Shown piece by piece: positions 40,001-43,000 of a stretch of DNA of 64,000 nt. This stretch comes from Escherichia coli. GTDB lineage: Bacteria > Pseudomonadota > Gammaproteobacteria > Enterobacterales > Enterobacteriaceae. Position 1 is the first letter of the stretch. Each line of letters starts with the position of its first letter. The stretch lies in the NCBI RefSeq assembly GCF_044324785.1, contig NZ_CP172127.1, one strand, 5' to 3'. The position numbers were made by a program.

Positions 40001-43000
40001 CAGCGTCAGACGGCTATTTTAAGTGCATCCGAGGCGCAGGCATTTAAAAATGCAGAAGCCGCACAACATGCCCAGGCCGCTAAAAAATCTATTTATAAAG
40101 GATTTGGCATGACCTTTAGAATGAGCAGTAAGAACTTTGCTTATCTCAATGATTCATTATGTGCAATTGATGAAGACAATAAAGATGCCACTGTTTATCA
40201 GTCAGGTCTTTATAACGTCATTGTTTATCACCACACGGGAAAAGTCGCCTTAATGAAGGAAGGTCAGTTTGTGGGTTATTTAAAATGAAGGAGCAAAGGA
40301 AAATCCCCCTGACGCATATTATGATTATCGGTGCGTTTATTTTTGCCTTCTTGCAAGTGGTGTTATTAGCCTCCCTGGTTCACGCTGTGAATGTTAACAA
40401 CGAAATCCAGGAAGGCTTATTTCAATCGGGGCGCATAATGGTAGAAAGTTTGCAGCATATTCTTTCGGTGCAAACGGGGATTAACTGATTTTCACCCCGC
40501 CCGATGATGACAGCAGCCGGAGAGATTTTCGATAATCGGGCAGTCGGCGCTGTCATCACCAGGGCAGGCATTCGCCAGCGCCAGTAGCTGGTCGCGCATG
40601 GATTGCAGCTCCTCAATGTGCCGTTCGATCTCCGCTACCTTCTCCAGCGTGCGCCGTTTTACATCGGCGCTGTGACGCTGCGGATCGTTAAACAGATTCA
40701 CCAACTCGCCGCTCTCTTCCAGGTTAAAGCCCACCTGGCGCGCCTGGCGCAGTAAGGTCAGTTCGTTGAGATGCTGCTGCGTGTAAGTACGATAACCGTT
40801 TTCGCTGCGCATCGGCGGCGTCACCAGCCCCTTCTCTTCATAGAAGCGGATTGCTTTGCTGGTCAGGCCGGTAATTTTTGCTACATCGCTAATGTTCATC
40901 GTTCGCGCAACGCCTCCTGTGCTTTGTTAAAGGGTTTCAACAGATAATCCAGCACGCTTTTTTTGCCGGTGCGGATATCGACCGTCGCCACCATGCCGGG
41001 AAATATCGGAAACTGCTGTTTACTTTTGTTTTCCAGATGGTTGCTGAAAGTGCGAATGTACACCCGATAGTAATAAACATCGCGCCGCACTTCATCCTGC
41101 ACGGTGTCTGGTGATATCACCGCCACTTCTCCCGGCAGGCCGCCGTAGATGGAGTAATCGTAGGCAGTTATTTTCACCAGCGATTTTTGCCCCGGGTGGA
41201 TAAACGCCACATCGCGCGGGGAAATTTTTGCCTCAATCAGCAGTTGCTCATCCAGCGGCACGATGGTCATCAGTTTACCACCGGGGGCAATGACGCCGCC
41301 AACCGTGGTGACGTCAATGTCCTGAACAATGCCTCGCACCGGCGCGGTAAAGTTGAGCCTGGTGAGGGAGTCTTCCCGTCCACGAATCACCGAACGCTGG
41401 GTTTCTACTTCCGCATTGGCTTTCGCTAACTCTTCCCGCGCCTGTACGTAGTATTGCGTGCGCACGTCGCTGAGTTTGTTTTCCAGTTCATTGGCCTGGC
41501 GTTGCAGGCGCAGCACTTCAACGCTGCTCGCCGCCCCCTGTTTTACCAGCGGCTGGGTCATCGCCAGTTCGCGGTTGACCAGGCTAATCCCCTGCGTCAG
41601 CCCGGTGGTGGCTTTGTTCAGCCCATCGCGGCGAGTGTTGTACAACGCCGTTTCCGACTCGATAAGTTCGGGGAATTTATTCAGTTCGTCAGGGAAGACC
41701 AGCGGTTTATTACTCACTTCCGCCCGCAGCCGCGCCGAGGTTGCCAGCGCCGCGTACAGCCGCGACATTGCTTCCTGGACGTCGGATTCCGTTTTGGTGC
41801 GGTTAAGCTGCGCCAGCGGCTGGCCCTGTTCAACAATATCGCCAACCTTGACGTCGAGATGATACAGAATTCCGCCTTCCAGCGACTGCACCACCTGTTC
41901 GCGCCCGGAGGGTTCTACCGTGCCGCTGCCGGTGGTGACTTCATCAAGCTGGAAGTACCACGCCCAGCCGAGAAAACAGAGCAGCATCACAGCGGTAACG
42001 CGTACCGCCAGCGCCGAACGCGGCAAGCGGGGTTCAGTCAGGCCACGGTTGTATTGCAGTTGTCCGTTCATGCGGCAGACCCCTTATTCTTCTCCTGCAA
42101 CACCACCCGTCGCGCCGTGGGTTCGCCCTGTTCACGCAAAATGGCCTCTTTCGCGCCATCCATCACAATCCGCCCCTGATCCATCACGATAATGCGGTCC
42201 ACCAGTTGCAGCATTGCCGTGCGGTGAGTGGCGATGATCAGCGTGCGATGTCCAATCCACTGTTTCAGATGTTCGATTAAATGCGCTTCCGCCATTTCAT
42301 CCAGCGAGGCGCTGGGTTCGTCGAGCAGGACGATATTGGGTTGAGAGATAAGTAGCCGTGCCAGCAGCAGCGTTTGCCGCTGACCACCAGAGAGGCCAAA
42401 TCCCCCTTCCTGAATCATGTAGTTGAGGCCGTTTTTCTGCTTCTGCACAAACGGCAGCGCGCCACTTAGCGTTAACGCGCGTTCGATATCTTCATCGCTG
42501 GCTTCCGGCATCCCCATCGTCAGGTTTTCCCGCAGTGAACCGAAAAATAGTCGCCCGGTCTGGCTGAGTAGCCCCATGTCGCGGCGCAGATCCGCCGGAT
42601 CAAGCTGACCGATGCTGATGTTATCCAGCAGCACCTGCCCCTGCTGGGCGATACGCATTCCGGCGAGCATTTGCAGTAGCGTTGATTTACCCGCGCCGTT
42701 GCGCCCAAGAATGGCGATTTTCTCTCCGGCCTGAATGTTGAGTTTGCCAATCGCCACATCGGCAATTTTCTCTTCTTCGTCGTAATAAAAGATAGCGTTG
42801 CTGAACTGATAATTGCCGTGTAGCACCGCTTTATGCACCAGTTTGCCGTGCTCCGGCTTATCCACCGGGCGCTTCATCAGTTCATCAAGGCCATTACGCG
42901 CTACTTTCGCCTGCTGCCAGCGCGAGAGCACGCCGGATATCTGCGACAGCGGCGCGATGGTGCGCGAAGCCAGGATCGTCGTCCCGACCAGCGCGCCGGT

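Follow-up and report, generated by a model that had tools for sequence, protein, structure and literature searches.

The function of CueR has been established in K-12. Two arrangements known from other E. coli genes bear on how such a gene may be expressed when it abuts an upstream neighbor. In one, the promoter is embedded in the upstream coding sequence: the main rpoS promoter lies inside nlpD, and promoters of ftsZ lie inside ddlB, ftsQ and ftsA. In the other, the stop and start codons of adjacent operon genes overlap in ATGA or TGATG and the pair is translationally coupled, as in trpE-trpD and trpB-trpA. The neighborhood of cueR itself differs among enterobacteria. In Salmonella and Klebsiella, cueR directly adjoins copA, the two forming a divergon (Permina et al., 2006, PMC1526738; Kim et al., 2012, PMC3415461). 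In EHEC O157:H7, O-island 28 (OI-28) carries tolC28-rtxA28-rtxB28-hlyB28-hlyD28 in that order (Niu et al., 2025, PMC12758282). That study treats the island as acquired and makes no mention of cueR, of an internal promoter or of a remnant in K-12.

We have analyzed a 64,000-nt stretch of an E. coli genome (assembly GCF_044324785.1, contig NZ_CP172127.1), referred to here as the window, in which cueR lies against the 3′-end of a type I secretion gene. The secretion genes are those of OI-28: locus and gene order are the same, the DNA of the MFP 3′-end and cueR is 96.7% identical to that of O157:H7, and in EDL933 also cueR overlaps hlyD28 by ATGA. On the minus strand, the gene for the HlyD-family type I secretion membrane fusion protein (MFP) occupies 40896–42071 and corresponds to hlyD28 (Z0635; named in PMC12758282). 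Upstream of it is hlyB28, the type I secretion ABC permease/ATPase (42068–44230, minus strand; TIGR03375, 836 bits), whose stop codon overlaps the MFP start, again by ATGA. The giant repetitive adhesin, the equivalent of SiiEA or of RtxA28-RtxB28, follows in the ORF list at 44234–63928 (minus strand); it differs from the O157:H7 arrangement in being one ORF of 6564 aa. The remainder of the island, tolC28 and its promoter, lies past the window end. In PCN033, the adhesin is annotated as 'BapA-related adhesin SiiEA' and the MFP as frameshifted. The flanking housekeeping genes of the window are 99.0% identical to those of E. coli genomes such as PCN033.

A first-pass annotation had drawn attention to the overlap of the cueR ATG (40899–40897) with the MFP TGA (40898–40896) in a shared ATGA (40899–40896, minus strand). 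The coordinates are exact and both genes are real; the minus strand around the junction reads ...GCGAACGATGAACATT... The cueR gene (40492–40899, minus strand) encodes a Cu(I)-responsive MerR-family regulator of 135 aa, which matches the CueR equivalog of NCBIfam (NF007590) over residues 1–135 of 135 with 308.6 bits against a cutoff of 244. It is identical at 135 of 135 residues to the crystallized E. coli CueR (PDB 1Q05, chain A); the annotated start codon is therefore the accepted one, and a wrongly called start is ruled out by that full-length identity. The MFP gene is intact and free of internal stops, and its 391-aa product scores 327.7 bits against TIGR01843 (HlyD-family type I secretion adaptor; cutoff 208.65). 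The match reaches the end of the profile, and the C-terminus is the native one. In a tblastn comparison, the protein is 100% identical to the product of EDL933 RS02795. Compared with Escherichia sp. E1V33, the DNA of the window differs at 53 of 1533 positions, though the best protein segment is 100% identical.

The overlap is a fixed feature of E. coli and not a chance occurrence: a 70-nt probe spanning the junction finds a match of at least 95% identity in 5424 of 5426 complete genomes. It is also ordinary: the junction is present in nearly all E. coli, and published data give cueR a promoter of its own in the upstream gene. Nor is it unusual as a pattern, with four ATGA overlaps within 6.5 kb (qmcA/ybbJ, a lipoprotein gene and a 67-aa ORF, ABC/MFP, and MFP/cueR).

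The evidence for that promoter comes from published mapping. The first-pass annotation had argued that any promoter of cueR would have to lie inside the MFP coding sequence, and Cappable-seq of EDL933 bears this out: a start at 604687 (plus strand) was attributed to cueR under each of the 8 conditions and was not differentially regulated (PMC10469882, supplementary files 6, 8 and 11). The position corresponds to nt 1012 of hlyD28, which puts a 5′-triphosphate start in the upstream coding sequence, 160 nt ahead of the cueR ATG, a suitable distance for a gene-internal promoter. No other cueR-associated start lies within 250 nt in those data. Between −260 and −129, counted from the cueR ATG, the window does not differ from EDL933, and the equivalent start is an A at 41059 (minus strand). 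Further internal starts in EDL933 (601588, 603894 and 604481/2) could also feed cueR.

We infer for the 41059 start a sigma-70 promoter at 41067–41095 (minus strand), with a candidate −10 element, TACTAT (41072–41067), 7 nt before the start site and, after a 17-nt spacer, a candidate −35 element, ATGAAG (41095–41090). Together the hexamers agree with the consensus at 7 of 12 positions, which is under the scan threshold. Ahead of the ATG on the cueR strand, consensus scanning gave no promoter in either the window or K-12, nor did a relaxed scan of the window (at least 8 of 12 positions), and for this reason we rely on the published start-site mapping. Both hexamers are invariant in the seven island-bearing sequences inspected, including that of E. 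whittamii, while the flanks and flanking codons vary; the 81-nt promoter region has a match in exactly 959 genomes, those that bear the island. The arrangement resembles that of rpoS in nlpD and of ftsZ: a regulator gene stands against an unrelated gene, its transcript starts within the 3′-part of that gene, and read-through from upstream is optional. It differs in that MFP and cueR also overlap by 4 nt, and in that the cueR promoter, whose only record is one supplementary table from a genome-wide study, has been deleted in most strains.

For translation, cueR has a Shine-Dalgarno sequence, AGGAGG (40913–40918, minus strand), formed by the MFP codons Q-E-A of a C-terminal motif, ...EALRER*, found throughout the family. 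The final 62 nt before the ATG are the same in the window, PCN033, K-12 and S1-KEN-07-A. The spacing to the ATG, 13 nt, is above optimal, which leaves room for a contribution of coupling while MFP is translated. When the 160-nt leader is folded together with 40 nt of cueR, the predicted structure has no unusual stability (z = +1.08) and does not sequester the ribosome-binding site. An Rfam search of 40300–41400 gave sub-threshold chance matches only. A search for CueR boxes (ACCTTCC-N6-GGAAGGT, up to three mismatches) found no site near cueR or MFP, hence there is no sign of autoregulation of cueR. MFP and cueR share with trpE-trpD and trpB-trpA the overlap of stop and start codons on the same strand. 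Unlike those pairs, they are functionally unrelated, and cueR has its own Shine-Dalgarno sequence and promoter. Moreover, cueR is normally expressed where the upstream gene is a 94-nt pseudogene, and K-12 makes working CueR without any fusion gene. Coupling may play a part, but this indirect evidence argues against its being essential.

The pseudogene belongs to the island-free genomes, which number 4458 of the 5426 complete E. coli genomes (82%) and include K-12. The first-pass annotation had expected such genomes to have an intergenic region of their own with the native cueR promoter, but no undisturbed site with a native leader is found in them. What they have instead is about 94 nt of the MFP 3′-end, frameshifted and still closing in ATGA. 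The corresponding segment of the window, ~95 nt at the 3′-end of the MFP gene (40900–40994, minus strand), is the sole part of the island that they keep. In K-12, the ybaT-cueR spacer of 124 nt consists of about 29 nt distal to ybaT followed by about 94 nt of the frameshifted MFP 3′-end, which translates as IVVAVDIRTGKK and a second segment of 19 residues. Megablast homology in the island-free genomes starts 92–95 nt before the cueR ATG, the remnant is annotated by PGAP as a pseudogene, and all 4458 have lost the −160 promoter. One deletion junction is common to these genomes at 98.5% identity or more.

The C-terminus encoded by the remnant is that of the whole MFP family; 16 of 16 homologs inspected from other genera end likewise. 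The full MFP-cueR junction is present in E. whittamii and in Escherichia sp. E1V33, and E. albertii, E. fergusonii, E. marmotae and E. ruysiae were not among the best 80 matches to the MFP query. Since the remnant encodes the MFP C-terminus, other Escherichia keep the junction, and a single deletion junction is shared, sequence comparison argues that island-free E. coli are deletion derivatives rather than empty sites. Whereas OI-28 has been treated as acquired, the remnant indicates its loss in genomes of the K-12 type.

Other starts near cueR have been reported. A start internal to ybaT lies at −292 from cueR in K-12 and has a homolog at 579390 in EDL933, both being 167 nt before the ybaT stop. 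A start at −19 is given for K-12 cueR by RegulonDB (quoted second-hand); its origin was not found in the text or supplements of PMC2760140 nor in the SMRT-Cappable-seq supplements.

How far does the secretion operon control cueR? The two genes lie on the same strand with a 4-nt overlap and no terminator between them. In homologous operons of other genera there is one after MFP: Enterobacter sp. Ag1, Cedecea neteri and Pluralibacter have a GC hairpin right after the MFP stop, followed in the first two by T residues. Some read-through into cueR is therefore likely. If cueR were mainly a distal gene of the secretion and adhesin operon, transcribed from the tolC28 promoter and translated by restart after termination at the MFP UGA, its dosage would follow adhesin export, and the suboptimal Shine-Dalgarno spacing would fit. 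Published EHEC RNA-seq points elsewhere. In the wild type, cueR (Z0636) stands at 66.6 and 62.9 FPKM (~65) and tolC28 (Z0608) at 10.7 and 12.0 (~11), a difference of about 6-fold; in the ΔrstA mutant, cueR remains at 60.2 and 50.5 FPKM (ratio 0.85), whereas tolC28 falls to 4.0 and 4.9 (ratio 0.39). The slight drop of cueR is what some operon transcription would give, but the gene is nearly insensitive to loss of RstA, and these data show neither a mainly common transcript nor co-regulation. The constitutive start inside hlyD28, the unsequestered ribosome-binding site, the annotated frameshift of MFP in PCN033 and the expression of cueR by 82% of E. coli without any MFP translation argue in the same direction. 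Control by the operon is thus unlikely to be the main mode. Because it has its own start in 8 of 8 conditions, a transcript level ~6-fold that of tolC28 and a ΔrstA ratio of 0.85 vs. 0.39, cueR is expressed mainly on its own, apart from the secretion operon. The first-pass interpretation survives in placing a promoter inside MFP, not in supposing a native intergenic promoter elsewhere or in tying cueR to adhesin export. The two outcomes that the annotation itself had named as contrary to it are essentially both seen: an independent cueR start, in the EDL933 mapping, and the same overlap, in the 4458 island-free genomes.

It could also be that the overlap arose neutrally through compaction and means nothing for regulation; any transcription passing over cueR would then serve it, and the −160 site would be a weak intragenic start like many others. 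The EDL933 study (PMC10469882) reported about 10,000 non-canonical start sites, ATGA overlaps are locally common, and different promoters serve cueR in K-12. We find this quite improbable, however, for a site called in every condition as the only cueR-associated start in its vicinity, and with a core that E. coli and E. whittamii share unchanged although the codons around it vary. A third view would have the island inserted beside an older cueR with its native promoter, the ~94 nt being the ancestral leader into which the MFP gene was extended. The Salmonella and Klebsiella divergon lends it some color: cueR is orthologous there and the neighborhood (copA ... cueR-ybbJ-qmcA) is shared, but copA and cueR are direct neighbors, without glsA-ybaT or the island, both of which lie between them in Escherichia. 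The adjacency implies a deeper insertion between copA and cueR in the Escherichia lineage, where the original cueR leader has been entirely replaced by MFP coding sequence. The 94 nt, however, encode a canonical MFP C-terminus, conserved to the last residue in genera without a nearby cueR; the stretch is frameshifted in K-12; and the mapped promoter of island strains lies outside the kept segment and is absent from all island-free genomes. For E. coli, such an insertion is refuted, and as an account of the locus it is hardly credible.

We consider it probable, taking the explanation as a whole, that cueR is largely independent of the secretion operon and is served by the promoter internal to hlyD28, the K-12 type having arisen by deletion. 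cueR would physically close an old Escherichia array, ybaT - tolC28 - giant adhesin - ABC - MFP - cueR, placed directly against the MFP stop where the homologs of other genera carry the operon terminator, which it would have replaced. A weak constitutive sigma-70 promoter in the MFP gene would start its transcription at 41059, and translation would proceed from the AGGAGG made of conserved MFP C-terminal codons. A minor share probably comes from read-through from the tolC28 promoter, controlled by RstA and Ca2+. Termination and reinitiation at AUGA may add a little CueR translation, and would be dispensable. A single deletion of ~25 kb, with one end point ~29 nt past the ybaT stop and the other ~94 nt short of the cueR ATG, would have produced the island-free state; the −160 promoter would have been lost, the ribosome-binding site and ATGA retained, and cueR placed 292 nt downstream of the already existing start in ybaT.

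The findings leave the accepted workings of CueR and of type I secretion unchanged. Ancestral presence in E. coli and its cryptic-clade relatives, followed by loss through one deletion, describes OI-28 better than acquisition does. The loss of the −160 promoter in the K-12-type deletion offers a modest lead on rewiring, the direction and consequence of which we infer. It is conceivable, though we hold it only tentatively, that loss of OI-28 rewired the copper sensor from a hlyD28-internal promoter in island strains to a distal gene of glsA-ybaT in the K-12 type. If so, the ybaT-internal start at −292 would feed cueR of the K-12 type, perhaps together with a −19 promoter newly improved within the remnant. 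The dosage of CueR in K-12 would then track the induction of glsA-ybaT by acid, glutamine and copper, which could explain the reported co-induction of cueR and ybaST under acid, and cueR regulation would differ between K-12 and OI-28-bearing pathogens.

In any case, the K-12 cueR leader, or 'ybaT-cueR intergenic region', is the stump of a deleted secretion gene, and knowledge of the cueR promoter is therefore not transferable between K-12 and OI-28-bearing pathogens. The deletions used in EHEC adherence studies, of hlyD28 or of OI-28 in full, remove the mapped cueR promoter. Lambda-Red ΔOI-28 or ΔhlyD28 mutants may thus also be disturbed in cueR expression, and in experiments that lack a control for this, such deletions could upset copper homeostasis.

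On the minus strand the junction reads ...GCGAACGATGAACATT..., so that the stop codon of the membrane fusion (MFP) gene (TGA, 40898-40896) and the start codon of cueR (ATG, 40899-40897) share four nucleotides, exactly where the first-pass annotation placed them. The MFP ORF (40896..42071, minus strand, 391 aa) is intact and matches TIGR01843 (327.7 bits), identifying a HlyD-family type I secretion adaptor. Before it come an LssB-type ABC exporter (42068..44230) and an adhesin ORF of 6564 aa (44234..63928). The cueR ORF (40492..40899, minus strand) encodes 135 aa. Since its product matches NF007590 over the full length (308.6 bits; cutoff 244) and is identical to PDB 1Q05 at 135/135 residues, the start codon is not an annotation artefact. 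The overlap is unremarkable in itself: four of the ATGA type occur within 6.5 kb (qmcA/ybbJ, lipoprotein/67-aa ORF, ABC/MFP and MFP/cueR). The 70 nt around this one are kept in 5424 of 5426 complete E. coli genomes, and the housekeeping DNA flanking the locus is 99.0% identical to that of E. coli genomes such as PCN033.

The secretion cluster is O-island 28 (OI-28) of EHEC O157:H7 (tolC28-rtxA28-rtxB28-hlyB28-hlyD28), and in EDL933 RS02795 (603675-604850) is joined to cueR (604847-605254) by the same ATGA overlap. OI-28 was recently shown to be a T1SS/RTX adhesin system activated by RstA and Ca2+, in a paper that nowhere mentions cueR (PMC12758282). The island often seems to decay while the DNA next to cueR is kept: PCN033 has frameshift annotations in both siiEA and the MFP gene (L002 1-5505), and in E. 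coli SCPM-O-B-8794 the MFP frame is broken about 50 nt before cueR (L008 about 5068-5121).

The cueR gene has a promoter inside the MFP gene. Cappable-seq of EDL933 placed a cueR start site at 604687(+) in all eight growth conditions, with enrichment scores of 4.2-9.0 and no differential regulation (Zehentner et al., 2023, PMC10469882). The site corresponds to nt 1012 of hlyD28 and lies 160 nt before the cueR ATG. As the window and EDL933 are identical from -260 to -129 relative to that ATG, the equivalent start is the A at 41059(-). Upstream of it lie TACTAT (41072-41067, minus strand) as a putative -10 element and, across a 17-nt spacer, ATGAAG (41095-41090, minus strand). Judged by these hexamers, the promoter is weak, agreeing with consensus at only 7 of 12 positions, which is why consensus scans did not call it. 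The stretch from -200 to -130 is invariant among the window, EDL933, PCN033, Escherichia sp. E1V33 and E. whittamii, whereas its flanks vary; neither hexamer differs in two further E. coli variants.

Expression data bear on whether cueR depends on the secretion operon. In RNA-seq of EHEC wild type and ΔrstA (Liu et al., 2019, PMC6824119, supplement 2), tolC28 (Z0608) fell from 10.65 / 11.96 to 4.01 / 4.88 FPKM (ratio 0.39), and cueR (Z0636) went from 66.64 / 62.86 to 60.19 / 50.45 (ratio 0.85). The cueR mRNA thus exceeds that of tolC28, the first gene of the island, about six-fold and hardly depends on the activator RstA. An independent start and near-constant expression are thus found together: the promoter proposed inside the MFP gene is borne out, but the proposed tie of cueR to adhesin export is not.

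Some read-through into cueR is likely all the same, because no terminator separates the two genes in Escherichia and cueR occupies the place of a hairpin seen in other genera; the 15% lower cueR level in ΔrstA would agree with this. That GC-rich hairpin directly follows the MFP stop in Enterobacter sp. Ag1, Cedecea neteri and Pluralibacter gergoviae (L009, L012, L018, about 5174-5220), with a T run in the first two, and looks like an operon terminator. The cueR Shine-Dalgarno AGGAGG (40918-40913, minus strand) is made of the MFP codons Q-E-A. As it lies rather far from the ATG (13 nt), termination-reinitiation could add some cueR translation. Coupling is unlikely to be required, since 82% of E. 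coli, among them the strain used to characterise CueR, lack a translatable MFP before the same ribosome-binding site, and since the PCN033 MFP gene is frameshifted. The leader, too, shows no unusual structure (z = +1.08) or Rfam element, and no CueR box was found near cueR.

In a megablast search of 5426 complete E. coli genomes with the MFP 3' end plus cueR, cueR was present in 5424, but no more than 959 had the MFP 3' half; the 81-nt promoter region is present in exactly these 959. In the others, K-12, BL21 and Nissle included, homology extends only 92-95 nt upstream from the cueR ATG. There RefSeq annotates a 98-nt pseudogene ('frameshifted; missing N-terminus') overlapping cueR by 4 nt. 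By alignment, the 124-nt ybaT-cueR spacer of K-12 is made up of about 29 nt that also follow ybaT in island strains and about 94 nt of MFP 3' end, which has lost 1 nt from an A7G run. Translated, this remnant gives IVVAVDIRTGKK and a further 19-residue stretch. We considered whether the shared segment is instead an ancestral cueR leader and rejected this; the first-pass annotation had assumed that cueR has an upstream region and promoter of its own in island-free genomes, but these lack a native leader. The remnant ends in the family-wide C-terminus of these adaptors, ...EA(L/F)RER* in 16/16 homologues inspected outside Escherichia (Enterobacter, Cedecea, Rahnella, Acinetobacter, Salmonella arizonae and other genera), and cueR lies within 4 kb of the MFP homologue at 0/77 non-Escherichia loci; the segment is therefore MFP coding sequence.

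A K-12 junction probe matched across the junction in 4458 genomes at >=98.5% identity. Together with the 959 island genomes these make up 5417/5426, which points to a single deletion, of about 25.2 kb in EDL933 coordinates. E. whittamii and Escherichia sp. E1V33 have the complete MFP-cueR junction, which speaks for an ancestral island and for the island-free genomes being deletion derivatives. The ybaT-tolC28 spacer of PCN033 contains the published OI-28 RstA box, TAATTCAAATT.CC (L004 about 4435-4450), just past the left deletion junction; K-12-type genomes therefore lost it with the tolC28 upstream region. On each side of cueR there are no more than 0-3 nt of non-coding DNA. A second indel (37082-40491) lies on the other side of the gene. 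It holds a hypothetical gene (37267-37629, minus strand) and, on the plus strand, a YadA-like trimeric autotransporter ORF (37978-39780), a lipoprotein (39866-40288) and a 67-aa ORF (40285-40488). The YadA-like ORF has 600 aa in the window vs. 431 in PCN033, 349 in S1-KEN-07-A and 338 in EDL933. K-12 lacks the whole cluster, and its cueR stop abuts the ybbJ stop. The two indels are independent, since S1-KEN-07-A has the cluster without OI-28.

With the K-12-type deletion the -160 promoter was lost. K-12 itself has two recorded cueR starts, one within ybaT at -292 (Kim et al., 2012, PMC3415461 supplement) and one at -19 (RegulonDB 10.5, as tabulated in PMC10469882; origin not traced). The former lies 167 nt before the ybaT stop (L001, K-12, 2750-2800; L004, PCN033, 4177-4227), and the EDL933 internal start 579390 is at exactly the homologous position; the deletion therefore put cueR under an already existing promoter. 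This ybaT-internal start points toward tolC28 in island strains. For the -19 site, G>T and T>A in island-free genomes create TTGAAT 17 nt upstream of TAACAA (L001 3036-3075 vs. window 40925-40955), itself 5 nt before the start; island strains have CTGGATTAT. No -19 start was called in EDL933, and a promoter may have been gained here after the deletion. A sigma-54 ChIP-seq peak has also been placed within K-12 ybaT, 679 nt upstream of cueR and in the sense toward it; its motif is strong (CTGGCACTGGTTTTGCT; PMC4591121, Table 2).

The arrangement, two overlapping genes and an internal promoter, is of a known kind, and all the facts behind it can already be found in public annotation and in supplementary tables; no paper assembling them turned up in the literature searched. 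For K-12, earlier comparisons had put cueR at the end of a ybaS-ybaT-ybbI operon, and Salmonella has a plain copA-cueR divergon (PMC1526738); in Klebsiella copA adjoins cueR (PMC3415461). Under acid, cueR is reported to be co-induced with ybaST in island-free strains (PMC9628877). That the OI-28 deletion rewired the cueR promoter is a tentative reading, which we hold to be rather doubtful. Since the deletion changed the promoters and co-induction with ybaST is on record, a putative difference in cueR regulation between island and island-free strains is plausible.
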